Below are positions 5,893 to 38,022 of a stretch of DNA of 64,000 nucleotides, piece after piece; the first letter of the stretch is position 1, and every line of letters begins with the position of its first letter. The translations under genes and the position numbers were made by a program. This stretch comes from Candidatus Berkelbacteria bacterium (GTDB taxonomy: Bacteria > Patescibacteriota > UBA1384 > JACPKC01). The stretch covers positions 234,283-298,282 of the forward strand of contig JACPKC010000010.1 of the NCBI GenBank assembly GCA_016187225.1, read 5' to 3'. The notes under the pieces were generated by a model. That model saw only the letters and a program-made list of their open reading frames with translations. It searched no databases and was not told the DNA's origin.

Positions 5893-6257
5893 ACTACCTC
5901 CGGCGCGAGTGAGATAATTTTTTGATAGCCCCGACCTCTAATTTCTCTGGCGACCGGTCCTAAGACTCGTGTCCCACGTGGCTGATCGGCGTCATCGATA
6001 ATTACCACCGCATTGTCGTCAAAACGAATCGTGCTACCGTCGGGTCGCTGAAAAGGAAAGCGCTGGCGGACAATAACGGCTTTGACGATTTGTTTTTTTA
6101 AAACTGTGCCGCGGGGTAAAGCATCTTTGACCGTCGCGACGATTACATCGCCGATTTGAGCGGCATCTTGCTTGGCGCCTTTAATAACACGAATGCACAT
6201 TACTTCTTTCGCGCCAGAGTTATCGGCTACTCTAACTCGACTGTAGGATTGAATCAT
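5889..6257 (-). CDS. rplN: 50S ribosomal protein L14
   Basis: [17 protein letters not shown], the L14 N-terminus. Confidence 0.9.
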
Positions 6258-6511
6258 AGTTCAGTTTCCTTGGCCGCTTCAGCTACCTTGAGCACGACCC
6301 AAGCCTTACGTTTGCTGATCGGACGGTTTTCTTCAATTTCTACGAAGTCGCCAATGTTAAGGGTAAGCTCGGCAGGTATATGCGCCAGAATATTTCGGCT
6401 TACTTGATATGCCTTATCGTAAAGTGGGTGGCGGTGCATACGGTCAACACGAATTCGCGCCGTTGGGGCGTTCACCTTAACCACTTTGCCAATTTTACGC
6501 TTTCGTGCCAT
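6254..6511 (-). CDS. rpsQ: 30S ribosomal protein S17
   Basis: 85-aa OB-fold protein in the expected position. Confidence 0.85.
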
Positions 6512-10989: not shown

Positions 10990-11018
10990 ATTTTACAGGT
11001 GGAACTGAAAACTGTCAA
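10990..11018 (-). promoter_or_regulatory. sigma-70-like promoter for the rplC-led ribosomal operon
   Basis: Minus strand reads TTGACA, a 17-nt spacer, then TAAAAT, about 85 nt upstream of the rplC start. Consensus match seen by eye. Confidence 0.45.
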
Positions 11019-11340: not shown

Positions 11341-11364
11341 CTGATCATGATTCCTAAATTAACA

Positions 11365-11388
11365 AGCTCCTCATGGGATGAGGAGCTT
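11365..11388. terminator. bidirectional intrinsic terminator hairpin between convergent genes
   Basis: AAGCTCCTCAT-GGG-ATGAGGAGCTT perfect stem followed by a T-rich tract. It lies between the end of the DUF378 gene and the end of the 11438..12208 gene. Confidence 0.45.
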
Positions 11389-11437
11389 GTTGGTTATTTA
11401 TGATAACTTCTTCGGCAAATCTGAATATGAAAGGAGT

Positions 11438-12208
11438 CTAGTGTTTTTTTCTGTCAGCGGCCAATGCTTGACGTTTTGAATAGGATATTGCGTAGGCAAA
11501 CATGAATACAAATGAAACTAATGCGGCATAGAAACTAAACTGCGAATTAACAGTTTGCCCGATTTTGTCGGGATTCAGGTGCGGGACAGTGTGGAAGATT
11601 ATAAAGTAGGTGCCGAGCGTTAATACTCTCGCCTGAAGCCATCGCTCCCTGTCTATGAGTGCAACGACGAATGCCGCGGCGAGTACGGCAAAATGTTGTA
11701 TAGCGCTTTCCACGCCAAAATTAAGATATACAAACACCCAATTCCAAATCGTATAACCCGCTATCCACTGAAGGGTCATACCGCGCCACGACAAATCTTT
11801 GTGCTTTGTTTTTGAGTCTATGTGAATCGAACTTATTTTCTCGAGAGTCAAGACAAGCAAAACACCTGCCACCGCATTTAGATAGTTTGGGGCGCCGCCT
11901 GATATGACATCTCTGAAAACCGCTTCGAAAATATTAGTGGCCAGAAGGCCGTATATTACCCATTGACCAAACTTGTGTTTTCCAAGGCTAGTGTTTCTAT
12001 ATATGGAGAGAACGATGATGCCGACCTCGATCGAGAACACCTTCATCCATGGAAACCAATCTGACTCGCCCCAAAGCAGTAACCAACACGTATAGAGTAT
12101 AAACGGAACGGCCAACCAAAAATAAAGTGTAAATTTGGGGTACCGACGAAATAATTCCTGGGAAACTAGCAGTACTAAAAATACGCCCATGGCAACGATG
12201 AAATTCAT
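11438..12208 (-). CDS. integral membrane protein, unknown function
   Basis: 256 aa with several hydrophobic helices. I do not recognise the family. Confidence 0.5.
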   Translation of the reverse strand: MNFIVAMGVFLVLLVSQELFRRYPKFTLYFWLAVPFILYTCWLLLWGESDWFPWMKVFSIEVGIIVLSIYRNTSLGKHKFGQWVIYGLLATNIFEAVFRDVISGGAPNYLNAVAGVLLVLTLEKISSIHIDSKTKHKDLSWRGMTLQWIAGYTIWNWVFVYLNFGVESAIQHFAVLAAAFVVALIDRERWLQARVLTLGTYFIIFHTVPHLNPDKIGQTVNSQFSFYAALVSFVFMFAYAISYSKRQALAADRKKH

Positions 12209-12606
12209 GCTTAGATTATATCATGCATCAGCTCAAATTGTATAATCTGAAAGCCGTGTTTCTTAACCTCCTCCGACGACCAAAAAGTTAAGCTCTGGTT
12301 TTTAAAATGTGAATAGCAATAACCTAAACTTTTCTTATTCTTTTGTATCTTTGTCCTACGCCTCTAAGACTAAGATATTACCACCAAACGAGACTTGTTC
12401 GGAATTAAGAAAGCAGAGCGTTTTGCGGAAAACCCTGATTAATCGCCTCCGCTTCGTTTCGGGCATGTCGGACGCGGCGGAGGGTGAGCGCTTCAAAATA
12501 TGAATCAACGCAGATAAATGGCAGATTCTCTTGATCGAGTTTAGTTGAGCTTAAAGTTGCGAAATTGGCAAACCAGACGACTAAAATTCATTAGTCTTGC
12601 AAAAAT

Positions 12607-13182
12607 TTAGACCTTGAGCAGGCCACGGAACCCCCTGGCGGCATAATAGGATTCTGCGCCATTGTGATACGTAAAAACTGTCTCGTAGCGCCGGTCGCAA
12701 AAGAGGGCGCCGCCAAGCATACGAATGCTCACAGGCGTTTGCACCCAACTCGATGTCTTCGTATCAAAAATGCCCAGTTTCTGTAACTCGCGATATTGTT
12801 GCTCCGTTAAAAGTTCAATGCCAATGGCCGCGGCCAAATCTAGAGCGCTATTTTTTGGCTGATGTTTTTTTCTTGATCCCAACGCCTCGTGGTCGTAACA
12901 AACATTTCTGCGGCCGATCGGACTTTCGGCCGAGGAATCAACAAAAAAGTATTCATCTGTTTTCTTATCGAAACCAACAACATCCGGTTCGCCACCAGTT
13001 GCTTCCATTTCATTAAGCGACCATAACTTTTTAGGACTATTTGTCAACTTGGTTTGTATTGTTACCCACTCGAGACCTTGATGGCGGTTCATGTTTTTCT
13101 CAAAACGGACTTTCAATACTTGAAGCATTTTTTCGCGTTGTTCTAATGATAACTTATTTTCATTGCTTTTCGTGTTGCTCAT
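12607..13182 (-). CDS. DUF4256-family protein
   Basis: 191 aa. LEWV..Q.KL...P.KLWSLNEME.TGGEPDVVG.DKKT.EY..., CYD.EAL.SRKKH.P, GGALFCDRRY and HNGAESYYAARGFRG match the DUF4256 family as I recall it. Confidence 0.65.
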   Translation of the reverse strand: MSNTKSNENKLSLEQREKMLQVLKVRFEKNMNRHQGLEWVTIQTKLTNSPKKLWSLNEMEATGGEPDVVGFDKKTDEYFFVDSSAESPIGRRNVCYDHEALGSRKKHQPKNSALDLAAAIGIELLTEQQYRELQKLGIFDTKTSSWVQTPVSIRMLGGALFCDRRYETVFTYHNGAESYYAARGFRGLLKV

Positions 13183-13364
13183 GTTTTGATACTACCTCAT
13201 AAGTTCACCTTAGAAGAGCAACGAAGGCGGAGTGTACCTTTGCTTTGAACTTTGCCATTATTGAGATCAGCGAAGTAACTGCGTCGCCAATAAGTCTTCT
13301 TAACACTTCCCCAATAATTACCCATAATTATTTTGCTTTCGGCTCAAGCAGAATAATTTAGAAA

Positions 13365-13592
13365 CTATTTTACTCTGAACTCAAAAACGTCAAAGGTAAA
13401 GTCAATACCCTGCGGCTTACTAAATTTATTGACAAACTCATATCCATTTTCCCCTGCAAGCTTAAATGGCAAATCGACATCAATGTCGGCAAAATTCGCC
13501 CAGCCAAAGTATATTCGTGCGTTAGGTTTGAGATATGCGCCAACTTCCCCAAAAAATTTGCGTTTCATTTCATCTTCGGGGTCCCAAAACAT
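13365..13592 (-). pseudogene. short ORF, possibly a C-terminal remnant of a SAM-dependent methyltransferase-like gene
   Basis: 75 aa (…GAYLKPNARIYFGWANFADID…) resembling the C-terminal LKPGG-type segment of class I MTases, with no N-terminal SAM-binding part. Weak support. Confidence 0.25.
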
Positions 13593-13634
13593 CCGGTCAA
13601 TGACGTTTTTAAATACGTTTGATTTATTGACTAC

Positions 13635-14066
13635 TCATAAATTCTTCGCAATAAGTTTAGAGATTTCTTCCAACTCTGCTTCGGGCGATTCCTTTCTTTC
13701 GCCTGGTCGGTATAGGAACTTTCTTGGCTCATATTCATAAGTTCCAGCATCACCTTCTTTGCGCGGGATAATGTGTAAATGGAAATGCGGAACGGATTGA
13801 CCTGCAAGTTTTTCATCATTCCAAGCAAAATTGAAACCAGCGGCGTCAAATGTTTGAACAAGTGCACCTAATATTTTTACTCGCAGGTCTTCAATTGCCC
13901 GCATTTCCTCACCTGTCAGGTTTTCATATTTAGCGACATGTCTTTTAGGAACAATGAGCGTATGGCCTAGGACAATAGGCATTTTCCCCAAAAACGCAAA
14001 AGCTAAATCATTCTCAATAATTTTCCGCTTTTGTATATCTGAAGATGTGCAATACGGACAGCTCAT
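13635..14066 (-). CDS. HIT-family hydrolase
   Basis: 143 aa with the histidine triad HFHLHIIPR. Confidence 0.85.
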   Translation of the reverse strand: MSCPYCTSSDIQKRKIIENDLAFAFLGKMPIVLGHTLIVPKRHVAKYENLTGEEMRAIEDLRVKILGALVQTFDAAGFNFAWNDEKLAGQSVPHFHLHIIPRKEGDAGTYEYEPRKFLYRPGERKESPEAELEEISKLIAKNL

Positions 14067-14213
14067 AAATTTTCCAGAGGATAAATATCAAAAGTAACTT
14101 CCTCGTACGAGTGAACGCTTTTCAAAACTCCTCCCAGCCACGTTGTTTGTCTATTTTTTGTTTTTCTTTATTAAGCCGAGTATTAAGGAGGGTCTGGTAG
14201 CAGTTAAAGAAAA

Positions 14214-14550
14214 TTATCTTCGCATCTTGCTACTGCCACTTATCTGCGAAAAAATTTGCTCAGGCGTTTGGTTTGCATTAATCATTCTTATATTTAGCTT
14301 TTTTGCTTTTTCTTCAATTTCCTTTGCCCAGTTTAAAGAATTTTGAAGTTGATAATTAGTTCTACCCATTGGGTTTTCTCGGCTCTCATGTCTTAATCGT
14401 TGGGCAAGAATTTCCGGTGATGTTTTAAGGAAGTAAACTTCGTCGAACAAGTCTATCATGTCGAAAACATTTCCTGACATTCCAAAAAGATAAATATCAT
14501 TTTGTTGCTCTGCAAGAAATTTTGATAAGAAATTTCTATCCATCAGAAAT
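14214..14550 (-). pseudogene. N-terminally truncated P-loop NMP/nucleoside-kinase-like remnant
   Basis: The C-terminal part (…IYLFGMSGNVFDMIDLFDEVYFLKTSPEILAQRLRHESRENPMGR…) looks like a kinase core plus LID. The upstream part of the track ORF (to 14762) is just translation of the repeat at 14703-14760, and no Walker A is present. Confidence 0.3.
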
Positions 14551-14702
14551 TCGTGGTTATCCAAAAATTCTTTATTCACATTTTGGCACTTTGTTATATT
14601 GCTGGATAATATTATACTAAAATACACTATGGTACTTCTTGATTTAGCCGCCGGATTTTTTCGCCGAAATGCCAGAGGCGCTGGCTCAGGCAATCTTTCT
14701 TC

Positions 14703-14760
14703 AAATCTGAAATGGTGGTGTTTGTTTAAAAAAGTCAGAACCCATTTTGCGGAGAACCCC
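14703..14760. repeat. outer-left repeat arm (Y-core), inverted relative to 18211-18262
   Basis: The minus strand reads GGGGTTCTCCGCAAAATGGGTTCTGACTTTTTTAAACAAACACCACCATTTC. This matches plus strand 18211-18262 with 2 mismatches. Confidence 0.7.
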
Positions 14761-15008
14761 AATTAAGGAAGCCAGCCCGCCGCCGCGAGCTGATGCTCGC
14801 CACCCAGCAAAAAAGTTTTCTCTGCATTTCTGATTTTGCGCGCGGAAGAATTTCTCTTAAATGGAAAAGAAAATTTTGTTTCTGGTGTTCTGCCCTCAAG
14901 GTCTCGGGCAGTTGGCGGGGCTAGATTTGGACTCGGAAAAGTGAAAACTATTTTTTGGGGATTAGGATTTCACTTTTCCGAGACTGATTTTTTGATTTGG
15001 GGATTTTG

Positions 15009-15068
15009 TCCGCCCGCAGGAGGGGTTTGGGGAGGAATGCGGGCGGGTTTTTCTTTTTGGTTTTGGGC
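15009..15068 (+). terminator. inner-left inverted repeat: GC-rich hairpin plus U-tract
   Basis: CCGCCCGCA-(19-nt loop)-TGCGGGCGG followed by TTTTTCTTTTTGGTTTTGGG. It is near-identical (1 indel in about 60 nt) to the reverse complement of 18079-18140, directly 3' of the prs-like gene. Confidence 0.55.
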
Positions 15069-15940
15069 TAATTAGAGACAATTTCATTAAGAATCAAAAC
15101 GGAAACATCGATATTAGTATCAGCACAATCAATGCTGTTTGTTAGATAAAGTTTTGAATATGATTTTTTAAGTCTTTGTGTTCCCGAATCAAGCAAGCCG
15201 TGCGTTACGAGTGCAATTACATCTTTCGCTCCAATCTTTTGACATAGCTCAGCAAACTTTACAGCAGTGCCACCAGTTTCAACCAAATCATCAATAACTC
15301 CAACTGTCTGGTTTTTTACGGTCTTAATAAAATTTTCGTCATGTACGATATCAATTTCAAAAGAATTTATTCTCTTTTTTGCAGTCCCTTGTAGCAACAT
15401 TCTTCTCTGAGAGCCTTGATCTGGAGCCAAAAAAATAGCAGAAGGATAGTCAATTAACGCGGCATCTTTTAACATTGGCGTAGCCGAAATGTTTTTTATT
15501 GGATATTTTCCAAACCATGGCTGTCCGAAAAAATGAGCGTCAAGGACATAGATTTGTTTTATGTGGTAATAATCAACCAATTTTATGATAAGATTTTCGG
15601 CGGCATTTGTTTCTCCTGAATACTTCGGATTATCCTGCATACCATATGGAAAGTAGGAAAAGAAAATTTCTATATTTTTATAACCAAGATTTGTTAGTAT
15701 ATTGAGAAGCATTTCAAGCTCGATAATTCCTGCATTTGGGTCTGGGGCTCCAGTATGAAGAATTACAATTCTTTTATTCAGTTCGATTTTCTGAAGTTTT
15801 ACATATACCTCACCATCAGGAAAAAATCGTTTTCCATCTTTATTTCCCTCAAGAAAAACAATCTCACAGTCTTTTGGTACTGACATAAGTCTGGCAAGAT
15901 GTTCCGCATGTAGCGTAGGAATAATTGTTACATTAGGCAT
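15068..15940 (-). CDS. ribose-phosphate pyrophosphokinase family protein (Prs-like, short atypical form)
   Basis: 290 aa with Prs landmarks: F.DGEV, YFPYGMQD (compare YFGYARQDR), LDAHF (compare DLHA), and the PRPP-binding loop VGVIDDLVETGGT. It lacks about 25 aa relative to canonical Prs. Confidence 0.75.
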   Translation of the reverse strand: MPNVTIIPTLHAEHLARLMSVPKDCEIVFLEGNKDGKRFFPDGEVYVKLQKIELNKRIVILHTGAPDPNAGIIELEMLLNILTNLGYKNIEIFFSYFPYGMQDNPKYSGETNAAENLIIKLVDYYHIKQIYVLDAHFFGQPWFGKYPIKNISATPMLKDAALIDYPSAIFLAPDQGSQRRMLLQGTAKKRINSFEIDIVHDENFIKTVKNQTVGVIDDLVETGGTAVKFAELCQKIGAKDVIALVTHGLLDSGTQRLKKSYSKLYLTNSIDCADTNIDVSVLILNEIVSN

Positions 15941-17366
15941 GATGTTTTATCAGGTCTTCAGAGTGTTTTTTTACTTTTTCTGAAATTATTACATCAACGG
16001 TGATATTTTCTTTTTCAAAATTTAGAACATCATCAGGTAATAATTCTATTTGTGCTTCAGCTCTTTCTTTTGCAGTTTTTGTTAAATCAATATCCGAGGT
16101 TTCCCATTCTCCAATAATATTTCCATTTGAAACAACCTGTTTCAGTAATGGTTCGCCGTCAATTTTCTCATCATACATTCCGATTACATCATGTTTAAGT
16201 AAACCTGTTTTTTTATCCAAAACTCTAAAAACCTGATGCGAACCTGGCAAAGTGGTCTTACCTTTATCAGCAGATATTTTTATTTTTGAAATGACTTCAT
16301 CCCCGTGCTTAATTCCTTTTAATTTGTAAACCATTCCTAAAGCAGGTTTTTCTCCTCCAGTAACAAGTTCAGTACCAACACCAATAAAATCTGGAGTAAC
16401 CTTATTTTTTGCTAGATCAAGTATTTTATATTCGTTCATATCTCCAGTAAGCATAATTTTTACATTAGGAAAACTCGCTTCAGAAAATATCTTTTTTACT
16501 TCTGGAATCAACTCTTTAACATTTCCGCTATCAATTCTTACCCCAAATAATTCATGACCATTTTGTCTCATTTCTTTTGCAACCTCAACAGCATTTTGCG
16601 CTCCTTTTATAACATTGTAGGTGTCAATTAAAAAAGTTACTTTGTTTTTATAGGAAACAAATTCATAAAAAGACTTAAATGCTTCTCTTTCATTTTCTCT
16701 TCTTTGTATATCAGCGTGCATTAAACTACTTCCGCTTACAGGAATACCAAATAGTTTTCCAGCAAGTGAATCTGAACTAATTGAAAATCCTGATATATAA
16801 GCCGCCCTAGCGCCATAATGGCCAGAATTTGTTTGCGAACGCCTAAGCCCCATTTCAAGCAGTGAGGCGTTATTACCCATTTGTTTTGCAGCCCAAACGG
16901 ATCTAATGGCTTTTGTTGCAATTAATGTTGGATAGCCAACTTGACTTAAAAAATAGGTTTCCAGTAGTTGTACAGCTACTGTTGGCCCCTCAATTCGCAT
17001 TATAGGTTCCTGGGGGAACATTATTGTTCCTTCTTCAACTGACCAAATATTTACATCCTTAAAAATATTACTTCCTTCTTTAACTAGATAATCAATAAAA
17101 TCTTTTGAAAATCCTTGGTTCAATAACCATTCAGAATCACTTTCATCTAATTTTGACTTTAAATAACGTAGGGCATACGGCATACCGACAGCGATAACAA
17201 AATTGTTACCTTTGTATGGAGGAATTCTAAAAAACATCTCATGTACTTCAATTTCTGAAAAGTTTTGAGCCCAATTTCTTTCGGAAGCACGAATATTATA
17301 TAAGTCCGTATTTAGAATCGACGGAATATCTTTTATTGATTGGCTCTCGTTATTATTTTTGTTCAT
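15933..17366 (-). CDS. type II phosphoribosyltransferase of the NAPRTase/NAMPT superfamily (nicotinate/nicotinamide PRTase-like)
   Basis: 477 aa. …GLRRSQTNSG… and …SSDSLAGKLFGIPVSGSSLMHADIQ… align with the FGTRR / GTSN…G(T)MAH active-site layout of PncB/NAMPT-family enzymes. Start overlaps the prs-like gene by 8 nt. Confidence 0.7.
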   Translation of the reverse strand: MNKNNNESQSIKDIPSILNTDLYNIRASERNWAQNFSEIEVHEMFFRIPPYKGNNFVIAVGMPYALRYLKSKLDESDSEWLLNQGFSKDFIDYLVKEGSNIFKDVNIWSVEEGTIMFPQEPIMRIEGPTVAVQLLETYFLSQVGYPTLIATKAIRSVWAAKQMGNNASLLEMGLRRSQTNSGHYGARAAYISGFSISSDSLAGKLFGIPVSGSSLMHADIQRRENEREAFKSFYEFVSYKNKVTFLIDTYNVIKGAQNAVEVAKEMRQNGHELFGVRIDSGNVKELIPEVKKIFSEASFPNVKIMLTGDMNEYKILDLAKNKVTPDFIGVGTELVTGGEKPALGMVYKLKGIKHGDEVISKIKISADKGKTTLPGSHQVFRVLDKKTGLLKHDVIGMYDEKIDGEPLLKQVVSNGNIIGEWETSDIDLTKTAKERAEAQIELLPDDVLNFEKENITVDVIISEKVKKHSEDLIKHHA

Positions 17367-18042
17367 TTTCTTGTTTTAGTTTTGCATATTTTAATAAAAT
17401 TGGTTCTATTTCTTTTTCACTTTCTATAAAATAAACATGGCCCCAAACATTTTGGTCGTATTTATTTTTTATTTGTTCCTCATATTCTTTTTTCCAATGT
17501 TCACCAACAAAAATAACAGGGTTCGGTAATTTTCCTACATGTTTATCAAATGAATCTATTTTATCCAAAGCAAAACGCATTTCAGTTTCTGTTCCAGTTC
17601 CTTTTTTACCCCCAGGAAGAACAATATATGCGCCACTTCTATTAAATAAACCTCTGAATTTTCCAGCTTGCTCGTCTTCGTAATATACTCCGCGCAAATG
17701 ACCAGGAATATTTTCAGTAGCAAACCCAGCTTCTTTTCCAACGGTTGTTTTTACAACAATAACTTTACCCTCATTTTCCACCACACCAGAGGAAACATTT
17801 TCAATTGAACCTTTATCTCCACCAACGATAACAGTTAGACCTAAATCTGCGAGTTCCTTGCCAAGCTCCTTCCATTTTTCAACCGCTTCAGGATTTTGTT
17901 TATCGAAGGTGCCAAATACAGAAATACGTTTTATTTTTTCCTTAATCAACAAAGCATTCTTATCGTTTCCAGTAGAAATTTTTTGAGGACTAACAATTTC
18001 CCCTGACTCTTGTTTATCACTAAAAAATTGCTCTTTTTCCAT
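17353..18042 (-). CDS. LOG/SLOG-superfamily Rossmann-fold protein (TIGR00730/00725-like)
   Basis: 229 aa. VIVGGDKGS… and …VLPGGKKGTGTETEM resemble the GGGxxGxMG and PGGxGTxEE motifs of LOG-family phosphoribohydrolases / SLOG nucleotide sensors. Start overlaps the NAPRT-like gene by 14 nt. Confidence 0.5.
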   Translation of the reverse strand: MEKEQFFSDKQESGEIVSPQKISTGNDKNALLIKEKIKRISVFGTFDKQNPEAVEKWKELGKELADLGLTVIVGGDKGSIENVSSGVVENEGKVIVVKTTVGKEAGFATENIPGHLRGVYYEDEQAGKFRGLFNRSGAYIVLPGGKKGTGTETEMRFALDKIDSFDKHVGKLPNPVIFVGEHWKKEYEEQIKNKYDQNVWGHVYFIESEKEIEPILLKYAKLKQENEQK

Positions 18043-18047
18043 ATGTA

Positions 18048-18062
18048 TGATATTAGCATTTT
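18048..18062 (-). promoter_or_regulatory. extended -10 promoter (TGCTAATAT) immediately upstream of the LOG-like gene
   Basis: Minus strand reads ...TTAAAAAAATGCTAATATCATACATATGG, where ATG is the LOG-like start. The -10 sits only about 7 nt from the start codon, implying a leaderless or near-leaderless mRNA. Confidence 0.3.
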
Positions 18063-18078
18063 TTTAATCTTCTACTAG

Positions 18079-18140
18079 CCCAAAACCAAAAAGAAAAACC
18101 CGCCCGCATTCCTCCCCAAACCCCTCCTGCGGGCGGGACG
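18079..18140 (-). terminator. inner-right inverted repeat: same hairpin plus U-tract as 15009-15068 in opposite orientation
   Basis: Minus strand reads CCCGCCCGCAGGAGGGGTTTGGGGAGGAATGCGGGCGGGTTTTTCTTTTTGGTTTTGGG. It would terminate minus-strand transcripts entering the cassette from the recombinase side. Confidence 0.55.
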
Positions 18141-18210
18141 AGAGCCGAGGCAGGGCGAATCCATATCCCCAGTCAAATGTTTCGCCCCGCCGAGTCCGCA
18201 TTAGTTTTCA

Positions 18211-18262
18211 GGGTTCTCCACAAAATGGGTTCTGACTTTTTCAAACAAACACCACCATTTCG
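18211..18262. repeat. outer-right repeat arm (Y-core), inverted copy of 14703-14760
   Basis: GGGTTCTCCACAAAATGGGTTCTGACTTTTTCAAACAAACACCACCATTTCG. Confidence 0.7.
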
Positions 18263-18376
18263 AATTTGCCGAAGAAGTTGCCTCGGGGCTTCGCCCCTCG
18301 GCATTGGTTTCCGCCAAGAAATTCCAGGGGGTTTTGAATTCCGCCAAAAGAATTCCCGCCGAAATTCGGCGGTTCC
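18252..18376. repeat. left arm of a roughly 125-bp inverted repeat (core-X) flanking the recombinase gene
   Basis: About 100 nt are identical to the reverse complement of 19859-19983, then there are 4 mismatches in the last 25 nt. It contains degenerate tandem motifs TTCCGCCAAGAAATTCC / ATTCCGCCAAAAGAATTCC / CGCCGAAATTCGG and a GGGGC-TTC-GCCCC hairpin. Confidence 0.75.
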
Positions 18377-18481
18377 CAAACGAAGTTTGGATTGCGCCAA
18401 AGGCGCAAGAGCCGATGAAGAGAGATTTTTAGAAATTGTCGGTGTAAGTGCATTGCCTTTATCAATTTAATTCCCGAAGCT

Positions 18482-20077
18482 ATGGTCAAATATTTTATAT
18501 ACTGTAGAAAATCAAGTGAGGATGAAGAACGCCAAGTTTTGAGTATTGAGGCTCAATTGACGGAGCTTCGGGAATACGCCAAGCAAAATAATCTTTTCGT
18601 TGTAAAAGAATTTTACGAGAGTAAAACTGCCAAAGAGCCGGGGCGAGAGATTTTCAACGAAATGCTTGGCGAAATTGAAAAAGGTTTTGCCTCTGGAATT
18701 TTAGCGTGGAATCCAGACCGTTTAGCGAGAAATAGTATTGATGGTGGTAAGGTCGTATATTTTGTAGACACTTTGAAAATTGTTGCGTTAAAATTCCCGA
18801 CATTTTGGTTCGAAGCGACACCTCAAGGAAAATTTATGTTGAGTGTTGCTTTCGGGCAAGCAAAATATTACACCGACAATTTGAGAGAAAACATTTTGCG
18901 TGGTATTCGCCAAAAGATACGCCGTGGTGAATTATCGGCAAAAGCCCCTTTAGGATATTTTAACGAACCACGACTTCGAACGATTGAACCTGATAAAAAA
19001 ACTTTTAGTAAAGTAAAAGAAGTATTGGAGCTTTTTGCTACTGGCGAATATACGCTCACGGCGATTCAACGCAAAATGTTTTCTCTCGGCTTGGTTGGCT
19101 CCCGAAGTGGAAAACCTCTCGCACTCGCCTCGATAGAACATATTTTGAAAAATCCTTTTTACTACGGACACTTTCAGTACCGAGGCGAGGTGCATGCCGG
19201 ATCGCACAAGCCAATGATTTCAAAGAAACTTTTTGACAAAATCCAAGAGGCACTTGTCGCCAATGGAAAACCCCGCAAAAAGCGAGGAGCAAAAAATTTT
19301 CAGTACTTAGGTTTTGCTACTTGTGGGATTTGTGGCTATGCCATAACAGCTGAAAGACATATCAAAAAAAGTGGCTTAAAATTTGTATATTATCGTTGCA
19401 CCCACAAGAGCAAAATTATTACTTGCACTGAAAATCGTTTTTTGCGGGAAGAAGTTTTAACCGAACAAGTGAAAAATCTTTGTCAAAAAGTTTCCTTGCC
19501 TGATGAGTGGCGGGAAAAGTTTTTAACTAAACTGGAAACTGAAAATATGGAATCCCGCCACTCATCAGACCTTTTCGTTCAAAATCTCCGTGATAATATT
19601 TCCGCCATTAAAGAAAAGTTGGAACGACTAACTGACGCATATTTATCCGAGGCGTTAGAACTTGTGGAATATCAAGAACGAAAAAATCTTTTAATGGCGG
19701 AAAAGAAAACAAATGAGGAGAAATTATCGGAATTTGAACGAAAAGGTAATCATTGGCTTGAACTCATGCGAAACTGGATTATTGAAGCCAACCAAGCCGT
19801 AAATCTCTATAAACAAGAAAATCCCTCACGGATGAGAGATTTTCTTGTTTCCATCGGCTCGAACCGCCGACTTTCTGCGGGAATGCTTTTGGCGGAATTC
19901 AAAACCCCCTGGAATTTCTTGGCGGAAACCAATGCCGAGGGGCGAAGCCCCGAGGCAACTTCTTCGGCAAATTCGAAATGGTGGACCGTACTGGATTCGA
20001 ACCAGCGACCTCTTCCATGCCATGGAAGCGCTCTACCAACTGAGCTAACGGCCCTTATTGCAATTGCATTTGAATAG
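18482..20077 (+). CDS. large serine recombinase (resolvase/integrase family)
   Basis: N-terminal resolvase catalytic domain (YCRKSSEDEE with the nucleophilic Ser), recombinase domain, zinc-ribbon cysteines (CGICGY…YYRC) and a C-terminal coiled coil. The ORF has no stop until 20077, so it reads through the right inverted repeat and the antisense of tRNA-Ala. The true C-terminus is uncertain. Confidence 0.85.
   Translation: MVKYFIYCRKSSEDEERQVLSIEAQLTELREYAKQNNLFVVKEFYESKTAKEPGREIFNEMLGEIEKGFASGILAWNPDRLARNSIDGGKVVYFVDTLKIVALKFPTFWFEATPQGKFMLSVAFGQAKYYTDNLRENILRGIRQKIRRGELSAKAPLGYFNEPRLRTIEPDKKTFSKVKEVLELFATGEYTLTAIQRKMFSLGLVGSRSGKPLALASIEHILKNPFYYGHFQYRGEVHAGSHKPMISKKLFDKIQEALVANGKPRKKRGAKNFQYLGFATCGICGYAITAERHIKKSGLKFVYYRCTHKSKIITCTENRFLREEVLTEQVKNLCQKVSLPDEWREKFLTKLETENMESRHSSDLFVQNLRDNISAIKEKLERLTDAYLSEALELVEYQERKNLLMAEKKTNEEKLSEFERKGNHWLELMRNWIIEANQAVNLYKQENPSRMRDFLVSIGSNRRLSAGMLLAEFKTPWNFLAETNAEGRSPEATSSANSKWWTVLDSNQRPLPCHGSALPTELTALIAIAFE
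19859..19983. repeat. right arm of the roughly 125-bp inverted repeat; distal end overlaps the tRNA-Ala CCA end
   Basis: Reverse complement equals 18252-18376 as described above. The last 6 nt (CCACCA) are the 3' terminus of tRNA-Ala. Confidence 0.75.
19979..20054 (-). tRNA. tRNA-Ala (anticodon GGC), CCA encoded
   Basis: Cloverleaf folded by hand: 7-bp acceptor GGGCCGT/ACGGTCC with G3:U70 (the Ala identity pair), D-arm GCTC/GAGC, anticodon stem CTTCC/GGAAG, loop ATGGCAT, T-arm with TTCGAAT loop. 76 nt ending ACCA. Confidence 0.85.
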
Positions 20078-36004: not shown

Positions 36005-37228
36005 TTAGTTGGAGGTTTTCCCCAGGTCAACTACCACAGTTTGAGGTGAGACGCCAACCACACTTAAGCCGCTTGGAACTTTTATTTGCTCTTTGCCAAT
36101 AAGGAGTGTTTGCTTGCCAGATTCAAGCGTGACCGGAAGCGTGAGTTCAAATAAAATTTGATCTTCTTTGAGCTTCGCAAGCTGATCAATTGAGCCGTGA
36201 ATTTGAACCTCAGCTAATGTTGGCGCAATTGAAATTATTTCTAAGCCAGCCGTTGGAGCTGTCAGATGAATTGGAACTGAAAAAGATCGCGTTAGCCCCA
36301 CCGTTCCAAGTTCAACCGAGATTGAGACGGTATTGACCGGTGGCTCAACTAGACGGATGCCGGCTGGTAGCTCAAGAGTCGATTCGAAAGTTTTGCTCTC
36401 ATTTAAATTTGAGAGATCAATTGCTGTTGTTGTCAAAGATCGCGTTTGAGCTAGCGCCCCAAGCGCGCCATTAATAGTGACGACGCTCGGCGCGACACTT
36501 AGAGATTCAATGACCTTGCCGCCGGGGAGTTGGCCTTGGGTCTGAACCGTGACACCAACTGTTTTAACGTTACTCGCTCGTACAATCGAAGCAGTTACTT
36601 CAACTTCGTGTTGAGCGAGGGTGAGTGAAGTTTTGGAAAGGTCGAGCGTCTCTGGAAGGTGAATTTCAATTTGACGCTTAACAATATCGCGTTCACCATT
36701 CAATGCCAGTTTGCCAAGCGCTTCCGTGACTTGATTAAGTTGGCTCATGGCACCTGCAACTTGGACGGTCGCTGGAGAAATGGTGATGTCGCCGGTCGCA
36801 AAACCGTCCGCTGGCTCGCCTTCAATTTGAATCCGAATTGGGATTTCTTTTGTCTCAATCGGCTCCAATCGCAAAAGCAGACGATCCGGTTCAATGCGTA
36901 AAATATCAACATTATTCAACTTGCTTGTCACTTGGATCGGTCGATCCACTAGGCCCGCTTGAGCATTAAAAAGATCGACCGTGGCTTCAAAGGAATTAGG
37001 ATTGAATTGTTGCCAGAGTGTCGGTTCGGCGCTGATAGTGACTTGCACTTTTTCTTCTTCCATAAGAGGAATCAACCCAGTTGGGATGTTTTCGAGTGTA
37101 ATCGGAATGCCACCTGGGAATAAAGCAACTCTCTGTTGACTACTACTGACAATGAGCCACAAGAAAAGCGCGAAGCCTAAACATAGAATTTGAGCAATCC
37201 TATCTCGTCCTAATCGCCAGTGAATCAT
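36005..37228 (-). CDS. cdaR: YbbR-domain protein, CdaR-like regulator of diadenylate cyclase
   Basis: 407 aa with an N-terminal TM helix and repeated YbbR-like beta domains. It overlaps and follows cdaA. Confidence 0.65.
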   Translation of the reverse strand: MIHWRLGRDRIAQILCLGFALFLWLIVSSSQQRVALFPGGIPITLENIPTGLIPLMEEEKVQVTISAEPTLWQQFNPNSFEATVDLFNAQAGLVDRPIQVTSKLNNVDILRIEPDRLLLRLEPIETKEIPIRIQIEGEPADGFATGDITISPATVQVAGAMSQLNQVTEALGKLALNGERDIVKRQIEIHLPETLDLSKTSLTLAQHEVEVTASIVRASNVKTVGVTVQTQGQLPGGKVIESLSVAPSVVTINGALGALAQTRSLTTTAIDLSNLNESKTFESTLELPAGIRLVEPPVNTVSISVELGTVGLTRSFSVPIHLTAPTAGLEIISIAPTLAEVQIHGSIDQLAKLKEDQILFELTLPVTLESGKQTLLIGKEQIKVPSGLSVVGVSPQTVVVDLGKTSN

Positions 37229-38022
37229 TTCATCGTCCTTGGTAAAATTAACTGAAGGAGTCGACGTTCTACTTGATCGCGATCCGGCCTAGAAACTTTG
37301 CCACGATGAATAATCGAAATTCCGCCCGTCTCTTCAGAAACTACAATGACAACCGCGTCAGTGTCTTTTGTAACCCCTAGAGCGGCTCGGTGGCGGGTGC
37401 CTAGAGAGCGATCGATTGTCTCATTGTCGAGAGGCAGGAAGGCGCTTGCCGCGACAATTTTGTTACCGCGAATAATCACTGCGCCATCGTGCAGAGGTGT
37501 TTTCGGAGAAAAAATTGATAGCAACAACTCCTGCGAAATTGCGGCATTCAATTGAACCCCGCTATCTGCGAAATCTTTAATCCCTGTTTGGCGCTCAACA
37601 ACAATCAAGGCTCCGATCTTATTTTGTGAAAGCCTAAGAGTTGCTTGGGCAAGAGTGGTAACGATATTTGAAACAGCCTCTTTAGATTGCCCTAAAAATC
37701 CCGGCACTAATTCGCCGCGGCCCAAGCGTTCTAGGGCTGAACGTAATTCCGGCTGGAAAACGATTGGAATAGCGACTAAAGCTACGGTCACAAGTGAACG
37801 AAGTAGAAAGTTGAGAACGATTAGATTCAAGTATTGAGCTATGAAATAAAACAGACCCAAGATAACTATTCCATATAAAATGCGCTCGGCGCGCGTCTGT
37901 CGGATCAGGAGATAGAGACCGTAGAAAATTGTCGCCACAATTAAAATATCAACTAGCGAATTCCAGTTAAACAGTGCGAACGTAGCAATCGTTTCCAGAA
38001 CCCCTCCCCGGCTTGAATCCAT
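37225..38022 (-). CDS. cdaA: diadenylate cyclase CdaA (DisA_N domain)
   Basis: Three N-terminal TM helices plus DAC-domain motifs (DGAVII, RHRAALG). Confidence 0.85.
   Translation of the reverse strand: MDSSRGGVLETIATFALFNWNSLVDILIVATIFYGLYLLIRQTRAERILYGIVILGLFYFIAQYLNLIVLNFLLRSLVTVALVAIPIVFQPELRSALERLGRGELVPGFLGQSKEAVSNIVTTLAQATLRLSQNKIGALIVVERQTGIKDFADSGVQLNAAISQELLLSIFSPKTPLHDGAVIIRGNKIVAASAFLPLDNETIDRSLGTRHRAALGVTKDTDAVVIVVSEETGGISIIHRGKVSRPDRDQVERRLLQLILPRTMK

Follow-up and report, generated by a model that had tools for sequence, protein, structure and literature searches.

We describe a three-gene cassette within a 64,000-nt stretch (the window, numbered from its first letter) of contig JACPKC010000010.1 from the Candidatus Berkelbacteria bacterium assembly GCA_016187225.1, which represents a groundwater organism with a small genome. 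The cassette encodes a Prs-like protein, a phosphoribosyltransferase (PRTase) of the PncB/NAPRT family and a LOG-fold protein; it is framed by an inner inverted repeat, termed R1, and lies on an island that also carries a large serine recombinase. Its three open reading frames (ORFs) share the minus strand and overlap by 8 nt and 14 nt. Their coordinates agree with the three overlapping genes proposed at 15068–18042 by the initial annotation, which had also been right in its domain calls (Prs-like, PRTase of the NAPRT/NAMPT superfamily, LOG/SLOG-like). The three products are identical to MBI2590178–80, encoded on a contig of 320,597 bp. The cassette and its adjoining signals are as follows:

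14932–14982, plus strand: second plus-strand terminator-like element, a hairpin with a 15-bp stem followed by a T-run; fold of -25.2 kcal/mol, z = -4.7
15010–15070, plus strand: left arm of R1, with a GC-rich 10-bp stem and a 19-nt G-rich loop, followed by GTTTTTCTTTTTGGTTTT; directed rightwards, towards the cassette
15068–15940, minus strand: gene for the Prs-like protein, 290 aa (MBI2590178.1), probably a Patescibacteria-type ribose-phosphate diphosphokinase by profile, structure matches and tree
15933–17366, minus strand: PncB/NAPRT gene, 477 aa (MBI2590179.1), assigned as nicotinate phosphoribosyltransferase by TIGR01513 and 2F7F
17353–18042, minus strand: gene for the LOG-fold protein, 229 aa (MBI2590180.1, HYW32_04140), of a rare SLOG-cluster-4 subfamily (PF18306)
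18043–18075, minus strand: putative cassette promoter, read from the sequence, with an extended -10 element TGcTAATAT (18058–18050) located 7 nt before the ATG
18076–18136, minus strand: right arm of R1, the same terminator-like element; directed leftwards, towards the cassette, and located 34 nt ahead of the first start codon

Assignment of the three proteins

Two readings of the triad had been put forward previously, a mobile salvage module and a counter-defence module akin to phage NARP1. According to the latter, the Prs homologue would pyrophosphorylate ADP-ribose and the PRTase would join the resulting ADP-ribose pyrophosphate to nicotinamide, yielding NAD+ after its depletion by a defence system, with the SLOG-like protein as an added partner. 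Phage NARP1 comprises Adps and Namat (Osterman et al., 10.1101/2024.02.11.579819; PMC12774641), and 97% of the Adps clade has a Namat homologue within ten genes (10.1101/2024.02.11.579819). Namat carries a selectivity-clamp helix with the motif GSX-phi-X-phi-X-phi-TRD (PMC12774641). Several features favour this reading: a Prs homologue combined with a type II PRTase recalls what phages carry (10.1101/2024.02.11.579819), the Prs-like protein, like Adps, is short and without a long allosteric loop, the module is foreign and beside a recombinase, and bacterial NARP1 copies exist (PMC12774641).

The central protein of the cassette is, with strong support from profile and structure comparisons, a nicotinate phosphoribosyltransferase (NAPRT) and neither NAMPT nor Namat. 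It scored 332.2 bits on TIGR01513, the NCBIfam equivalog model for NAPRT, thus passing the cut-off of 297.4 bits, and 34 bits on the NadV/NAMPT model NF006629, which has a cut-off of 405 bits. Its best solved relative was the E. faecalis NAPRT 2F7F (E = 5.4e-61, residues 16–400), and no NAMPT or Namat chain was matched in the PDB. In the alignment with 2F7F, the EFGTRR, RRSQ, GVRIDSG and GVGT blocks are retained, together with the His aligned with AHS. The long form of the PRTase (470–490 aa) had been taken as compatible with NARP1, but it is not diagnostic, as 477 aa is normal for NAPRT (494 aa in 2F7F). Close relatives were limited to a small Patescibacteria group of about eight clusters, beyond which identity was at most 40% and the named matches included DPANN archaea and Firmicutes.

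Comparison with the phage enzymes separated the PRTase further from Namat. On NF006629, the Namat-type partner of phage phiEa104 reached 425 bits, against the 34 bits of the cassette enzyme, and BLASTP against eight phage partners returned no significant match (E ≥ 0.002). A regular-expression search for the Namat motif as GSxxxxxxTRD recovered it in all eight phage partners; it is absent from the cassette PRTase, which contains no TRD at all. Cleavage of NAD+ releases nicotinamide, which is not a substrate of NAPRT, and this likewise counts against a NARP1-like role.

As neither percent identity nor hidden Markov model (HMM) scores separate Adps from Prs, a tree and gene neighbourhoods were used to place the Prs-like protein. 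Only Prs models and structures were matched, with solved Prs 3DAH at 1.5e-21. The scores were 114 bits on PRK00934 (cut-off 296), which we take to be the archaeal-type Prs model, and 106.1 bits on TIGR01251 (cut-off 113); the latter model does not distinguish the Prs and Adps subfamilies, a member of the same Patescibacteria clade (P0108) scoring 131 bits and a phage Adps-like protein 121 bits. Sequence identity was 28% to the Adps-like protein of phiEa104 and 22–24% to bacterial Prs. The motifs FPDGE, DAH, the Lys-Arg loop and DDLVETGGT are retained, the third Asp of DDxxDTGGT being replaced by Glu. At E ≤ 1e-5, the clade around the cassette protein numbered 456 proteins with lengths of about 290 aa; wherever a source name is available for a listed member, it denotes a Patescibacteria lineage. 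The clade shares a mean identity of 20% with phage Adps-like proteins and of 26% with cellular Prs. In most members, as in the cassette protein (MQD), the Arg of RQD is exchanged for Met, whereas P0108 and P0120 have RQD intact. That the protein is about 25 aa shorter than canonical Prs had also been regarded as compatible with NARP1. This length is not diagnostic either, since about 290 aa is the norm for the clade and archaeal Prs span 284–291 aa.

A neighbour-joining tree of a small sample (239 columns, 200 bootstraps; not maximum likelihood) grouped nine phage Adps-like proteins, each encoded beside a NAMPT-type gene, at a bootstrap support of 100%. The Prs-like protein is not part of this phage clade, and its Patescibacteria relatives are on the opposite side of the split, together with bacterial and archaeal Prs. 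In nine of nine phages, the Adps-like gene precedes that of its Namat-type neighbour, whereas the cassette has a different order and a NAPRT gene as the neighbour. None of five other contexts inspected from the Patescibacteria clade contained a NAMPT-type neighbour; two belong to glycosyltransferase clusters, where a RapZ_C-like protein is the neighbour, and two lie among housekeeping genes. No structure of Adps for comparison was found in the PDB copy searched. Taken together, tree, profiles and motifs make the protein a probable Patescibacteria-type Prs that would produce 5-phosphoribosyl 1-pyrophosphate (PRPP); no second prs gene was seen within the window.

Of note, Prs homologues 78–80% identical to that of the window are found in large glycosyltransferase clusters (L003 5906–7170 and L009 5052–6306, also L004–L008 and L010), adjoined by a RapZ_C-like, phosphatase-like protein of 116–121 aa (PF22740). 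Clusters of the L003/L009 type hint at a PRPP-dependent ribofuranosylation of a glycan.

The third protein scored 35 bits on the Pfam model for SLOG cluster 4, PF18306 (cut-off 26.3), and remained below the cut-offs of PF03641 and TIGR00730. Its AlphaFold2 model, of moderate confidence (pLDDT 68, predicted TM-score 0.71), was searched with Foldseek, and the top 50 PDB matches were all of the LOG/YgdH/PpnN type or uncharacterised relatives (E down to about 1e-8, TM-score 0.55–0.70). The protein thus has, as modelled, a LOG Rossmann-like fold. The PGGxGTxxE-like motif reads PGGKKGTGTETE in the cassette protein and PESKNGLGTRSE in its nadE-linked relatives, and its Glu is invariant across the family. 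From this fold, the most likely activity is hydrolysis of a nucleoside 5'-monophosphate to base and ribose-5-phosphate.

Relatives of this LOG-like protein are rare: 16 were retrieved in a word-indexed search of 5.8 billion proteins and five at E ≤ 1e-30 in a profile search of 1.84 billion representatives, whereas profile-guided searches of species genomes and IMG/VR yielded none and JGI metagenomes just three short contigs. In all five other Patescibacteria lineages with genomic context, the gene lies 5–16 nt downstream of a gene for a 263-aa NH3-type NAD synthase (nadE), the five NadE proteins being 68–94% identical to one another (L011 9286–10669, L012–L014, L015 9201–12062 and L016–L022). 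The order is nadE-LOG-pncB in one of the five (L015 9201–12062), and no nadD-like gene was found in any nadE-LOG neighbourhood obtained. Judged by gene linkage, the LOG-like family has a closer connection with the final steps of NAD synthesis than with Prs. L015 also carries, at 5912–6487, a further and more canonical paralogue of SLOG cluster 4 (92 bits), located 3.5 kb upstream of nadE-LOG-pncB; its 3' end overlaps a convergent guanylate kinase gene. The fusion partners of distant LOG relatives, namely HAD, amino-acid kinase and methyltransferases, were uninformative on NAD.

The cassette recurs outside this assembly. Segment 15041–18105 is identical to a Logan contig from run SRR12113424, and a second copy of the same three genes (L002, from the different run SRR22387937) shows 89.6% nucleotide identity. 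Synonymous divergence between the two copies is 0.44–0.74 per site, and the ratio of nonsynonymous to synonymous divergence is 0.08 for the Prs-like gene, 0.014 for the NAPRT gene and 0.12 for the LOG-like gene; the PRTase retains 98.7% amino-acid identity at 92.5% nucleotide identity. By these measures, purifying selection acts on all three genes, and very strongly on the NAPRT gene. Further variants in public assemblies were all on contigs of at most 3066 bp.

Repeats, regulatory signals and the recombinase island

The inner inverted repeat, which had been noted at 15009–15068 and 18079–18140, was confirmed at corrected coordinates, 15010–15070 and 18076–18136, as a pair of 61-nt arms of 100% complementarity. 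Folding gave, in each copy, a 10-bp GC-rich stem and a 19-nt G-rich loop, followed by GUUUUUCUUUUUGGUUUU. The 37-nt hairpin core occurs exactly twice in the 64 kb, compared with no occurrence in 100 shuffles. An exact-pattern search of IMG/VR and of 185,579 species genomes, which do not include the source genome, found no match, and among 41 fetched loci R1 was absent outside cassette contigs. A genome-wide REP-like repeat is not supported within the sequence covered, as the window, the only part of the source genome searched, holds just the two flanking copies and the genome and viral collections none. The loop of R1 (15019–15037 and 18109–18127; GGAGGGGTTTGGGGAGGAA) consists of G-tracts, which terminator loops do not usually contain and which might in principle fold into a G-quadruplex.

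The Logan contig from SRR12113424 breaks off 30 nt inside each R1 arm, as expected because a k=31 graph must stop at an inverted repeat. The L002 contig terminates in R1 at both ends and shows the same T-to-C change in both arms; R1 with its upstream region differs by one change in 63 nt between copies whose synonymous divergence is 0.44–0.74. Since R1 recurs, with one co-varying change, around a copy diverged by 10%, sequence comparison indicates that it is conserved, locus-specific and evolving in concert, and not an artefact of one assembly. The extended -10 element is likewise retained in L002, and its position only 7 nt before the ATG suggests a leaderless mRNA. An Rfam scan of 10.5–22.5 kb for NAD+ riboswitches or other leaders found the tRNA alone.

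The AT-rich composition attributed to the cassette by eye was substantiated by calculation: GC content is 0.33–0.36 across 15–18 kb, compared with 0.45–0.50 in the flanks, and GC content at third codon positions (GC3) is 0.19–0.26 in the cassette, compared with 0.39–0.47 in 15 host genes. Cassette GC3 is also below that of the remaining island, of which it is the compositionally most deviant part. The island itself, about 8.6 kb at 11405–19984, coincides with the low-GC stretch and lies between direct repeats at the 3' end of tRNA-Ala(GGC). It contains genes for a DUF5692 protein, a DUF4256 protein, a 75-aa ORF, a HIT protein and a truncated P-loop kinase, then the cassette and the large serine recombinase. 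The features that define it, described with reference to attachment (att) sites, are the following:

11405–11427, plus strand: left direct repeat AACTTCTTCGGCAAATCTGAA, the attL-type boundary
14214–14543, minus strand: P-loop kinase remnant, a C-terminal half without P-loop, with a weak match to the shikimate-kinase C-terminus only; GC3 0.30
14697–14759, plus strand: left arm of the outer repeat, a degenerate direct-repeat copy with core GAAATGGTGG, then segment c2; attL-type
18211–18273, minus strand: right arm of the outer repeat (c2 and core)
18252–18375, minus strand: inverted copy of a1 (the last 124 nt before the tRNA), joined to c2 as an intact inverted attP-like joint
18482–20077, plus strand: large serine recombinase, 531 aa, with the Pfam domains Resolvase, Recombinase and Zn_ribbon_recom; PHROG integrase match at 7e-70
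19861–19984, plus strand: right copy of a1, whose last 28 nt are the right direct repeat (attR-type), ending in the CCACCA of the tRNA
19979–20054, minus strand: tRNA-Ala(GGC), the integration target, complete by ARAGORN; Rfam 66.6 bits

The 16-mer AACTTCTTCGGCAAAT within the direct repeats was found only at 11405 (plus), 19957 (plus) and 18264 (minus), with a chance expectation of 0.02. The adjoining large serine recombinase that had been proposed is indeed present with its three domains. A tRNA 3' end had also been noticed; the complete tRNA-Ala(GGC) is at 19979–20054, and the end originally seen corresponds to the CCACCA-containing repeat at 18252–18261. From the three-domain recombinase, the direct repeats at both ends, one of them at the tRNA 3' end, and the deviant composition, this is an integrative island of a large serine recombinase at a tRNA end. 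GC3, the 16-mer direct repeats, the recombinase abutting the tRNA and the closest relatives of the Prs-like protein, which are 80% identical and include one named Zambryskibacteria, argue for foreign origin, and the cassette is most likely horizontally acquired cargo of the island. The earlier proposal that the unit is foreign and mobile, with a serine recombinase alongside, thus holds on GC3, direct repeats and recombinase.

The repeats within the island are nested. The outer pair exists as reported, with coordinates refined from 14703–14760 and 18211–18262 to 14697–14759 and 18211–18273 (63 nt, 90%), and with a core at 14709–14759 and 18211–18261 (51 nt, 96%). It represents recombination-site sequence and not terminators, so the description of the cassette as bracketed by terminator repeats applies to the terminator-like inner pair and not to the att-type outer pair. 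A third inverted pair, which had been missed, was identified at 18252–18375 and 19861–19984 (124 nt, 97.6%) and brackets the recombinase gene. The recombinase ORF runs through a1 into the antisense of tRNA-Ala, and the right a1 encodes its last ~40 residues before the tRNA. When aligned, three sites prove related: 19957–19984, with a1 and tRNA (attR-type); 14697–14759, with the degenerate repeat and c2 (attL-type); and 18211–18375, the inverted a1/c2 joint (attP-type). The core GAAATGGTGG is common to all three. The cassette flanks accordingly form a long degenerate inverted duplication c2-U-R1, of which only the ends are conserved (c2 96%, R1 100%). A tandem arrangement of two elements is suggested by 14697–14720, where the direct repeat occurs a third time in degenerate form.

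In IMG/VR, the recombinase matched only two contig-end fragments of 136 aa (L032 4–354 and L033 18–428), 65% identical to its N-terminus, which break off into unrelated sequence. The kinase remnant, NMP/shikimate-kinase-like, lies directly beside the degenerate repeat, and the TTG-started ORF 14214–14762 is probably not a real gene. A PADLOC scan of eight island proteins produced no significant defence match, with marginal matches only (E ≥ 1e-4) besides a generic HIT-family one; the latter was a weak 1.5e-7 match of the HIT-family protein (13635–14066, minus strand) to ThsC2|ThsC 'HIT family', which probably reflects generic similarity.

The 10.9-kb interruption between rpsJ and rplC that had been described is real, and comprises the 8.6-kb island plus native genes, namely DUF378, tRNA-Ala, a Pyr_redox gene and a CopD-like gene. 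A near-consensus promoter of its own (TTGACA-17-TAAAAT at 10990–11018, minus strand) serves rplC, so that the S10 operon is divided at this point. A hairpin with an 18-bp stem (11357–11395) follows the DUF378 gene just before the left repeat of the island. Elsewhere in the window, and unrelated to the cassette, a CdaA (c-di-AMP synthase) and YbbR pair (36005–38022, minus strand) lies among the housekeeping genes Obg, IF-2, GyrA and GyrB.

Interpretation of the cassette

The reading that we favour, with reasonable confidence, is that the cassette is an acquired, self-promoted and insulated operon for entry into the Preiss-Handler pathway, which brings its own PRPP supply and is cargo of the island at tRNA-Ala(GGC). 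PncB, by strong family assignment, would convert nicotinate and PRPP to nicotinate mononucleotide (NaMN), and the Patescibacteria-type Prs, given its family and conserved catalytic motifs, would form PRPP from ribose-5-phosphate and ATP. The LOG-fold protein, considering its fold, would cleave a nucleoside 5'-monophosphate to ribose-5-phosphate and base. Both Prs and NadE release AMP as a by-product. Transcription of the operon would begin at the extended -10 element, 7 nt upstream of the first ATG; the right copy of R1, co-directional with the genes, would halt transcription reading in, and the left copy, with the hairpin at 14932–14982, would halt plus-strand transcription from the other side. 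The outer repeats, that is attL, the inverted attP-like joint and attR, would have been left by recombinase-mediated integration and rearrangement. The salvage module of the initial annotation is broadly supported by this outcome, while its notion that the LOG-like protein releases ribose-5-phosphate for Prs is still an inference.

Several observations weigh against this reading. The Prs-like protein falls just under the TIGR01251 cut-off (106 versus 113 bits), and replacement of the RQD Arg by Met makes its activity as a PRPP synthase less than certain. The genes nadD and nadE are absent from the 64-kb window, so conversion of NaMN to NAD here cannot be shown. In the LOG-like family, the Arg at the canonical LOG position is not conserved; moreover, the genes found linked to its relatives are nadE and pncB and not prs, for which reason ribose-5-phosphate supply may be the wrong reaction. 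No U-tract follows either R1 hairpin in the direction of the operon's own transcript, for which neither copy is thus a proper terminator; the 19-nt loop is atypical, and a consensus scan did not include R1 in its list. The inverted attP-like joint is not derivable from any single known rearrangement. No empty site or excised form was seen, and Logan contigs retrieved via the flanking Pyr_redox gene break inside the tRNA.

A bolder extension, offered tentatively, is that the LOG-fold family is a dedicated and so far unrecognised component of NAD salvage, restricted to Patescibacteria, and that the R1 pair may delimit a piece of cargo that is moved or flipped in one block. In one version, the LOG-like protein may be an AMP/nucleoside-monophosphate phosphoribohydrolase that recycles AMP from NadE and Prs into ribose-5-phosphate, in which case LOG and Prs together would turn ATP into PRPP and adenine without the pentose-phosphate pathway. 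In a second, more radical version, it may fill the slot between PncB and NadE in nadE-X-pncB operons and replace a missing step.

Apart from the favoured operon reading, the alternative that fares best, and that we nonetheless regard as unlikely, holds that the 3.1-kb unit with R1 at either end can move or invert in its own right. R1 or the c2-U-R1 arms would be the functional ends or flip sites for the neighbouring serine recombinase or for homologous recombination, and any terminator role would be secondary. The persistence of R1 on both sides of a copy as diverged as L002, with its co-varying change, points to concerted evolution or to selection on both arms. The short contigs of all public variants, the extension of the arms outwards to the equally inverted, att-type c2 and the lower GC3 of the cassette than of the rest of the island are also in keeping with such a unit. 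Against it stand the lack of a target-site duplication flanking R1 and the absence of R1 from the searched species genomes and IMG/VR, by which no family with other cargo is known. No large serine recombinase is known to use R1-like sites, and inversion would leave expression unchanged because the promoter is inside the segment. A short-read assembly with such repeats cannot fix the orientation of the 3.0-kb segment between the arms.

It is improbable that the triad is a native, vertically inherited housekeeping operon with ordinary terminators that are alike by chance. Relatives from the Prs-like clade do occur in housekeeping contexts, the window has no other prs in sight and all three genes are under purifying selection, but GC3 is about half that of host genes, direct repeats, tRNA target and recombinase are all present, both NAPRT and the LOG-like protein are uncommon among Patescibacteria (about eight and five clusters, respectively), and perfect identity over 61 nt cannot be coincidence.

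Very improbable, in turn, is that the palindromic layout is an assembly artefact, whether produced as a fold-back chimera or by collapsing two copies of an element, or its integrated and excised forms, into one. At 51–124 nt the repeats do surpass the k-mer sizes in common use, it is precisely within them that Logan contigs break, and the internal a1/c2 joint is what an excised circle would carry. However, the unique 3.0-kb segment is continued by R1 at either end, as seen in two independent samples and two diverged lineages, and R1 therefore truly flanks the cassette on both sides; in addition, the 250-bp spacer U1 is unlike the 74-bp spacer U3, which identifies the two arms as distinct loci and not one collapsed copy. 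Least tenable of all is the NARP1-like reading, which fails on both enzymes by PRTase family, clamp motif, Adps clade and neighbours, and for which IMG/VR supplied no close relatives of the R1 pattern or of the LOG-like, NAPRT or Prs-like proteins.

Under the favoured reading, a tempting but wrong annotation is removed, that of NARP1-like counter-defence in the candidate phyla radiation, and simple tests become available that separate NARP1 from look-alike pairs of Prs and PRTase: PRTase family, the Namat clamp motif and membership of the Adps clade. The capacity to make NaMN from nicotinate emerges as a rare accessory trait in Patescibacteria that travels, at least here, as a compact insulated operon on a recombinase island, which bears on the cofactor autonomy of host-dependent bacteria with reduced genomes. 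The strict nadE-LOG linkage provides a testable candidate for a step or helper reaction in Patescibacteria NAD metabolism.

Comparison with known systems

NAD-salvage genes carried on a serine-recombinase island are a variant of known things; the nested, conserved inverted architecture has no explanation from a single known event. With respect to Preiss-Handler NAD salvage (PncB/NAPRT, then NadD, then NadE), the likeness lies in the central enzyme, which meets the curated NAPRT model and aligns with 2F7F, and in the same LOG-like gene within nadE-LOG-pncB or nadE-LOG operons of related Patescibacteria. In the cassette, by contrast, pncB is accompanied by a prs of its own and by the gene for a LOG-fold protein, the island is foreign and neither nadE nor nadD is nearby; the literature searched contained no account of a LOG-family partner in this pathway.

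The Prs-like protein resembles archaeal class III and other cellular PRPP synthases in its length of about 290 aa without C-terminal extension, in having PRK00934 as the highest-scoring model and in keeping FxDGE, DxH, the K-R loop and DDxxxTGGT. It departs from them in its identity of 22–31%, its separate Patescibacteria clade, the exchange of the RQD Arg for Met in most members and a shortened catalytic flexible loop. The third protein shares with the LOG and PpnN (YgdH) phosphoribohydrolases the fold and the PGG..GTxxE-like motif with its invariant Glu, and is distinguished by 14–20% identity, a motif with a 2–3-residue insertion or with PES replacing PGG, an unconserved canonical Arg and the very small size of its subfamily.

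Among elements of large serine recombinases, such as phage integrases, SCCmec Ccr and the XisF type, the common ground is a three-domain recombinase by a tRNA-end target, direct repeats and deviant composition. The island differs by its extra intact inverted joint, the 124-nt inverted duplication around the recombinase gene and a recombinase ORF that reads across the junction into the tRNA antisense. Finally, phage NARP1 is similar in that a mobile element carries a Prs-family gene adjacent to the gene for a type II PRTase, and both systems concern NAD supply. The cassette differs from it in a NAPRT-family PRTase without the clamp motif, a Prs homologue outside the Adps clade, another gene order and a third gene.

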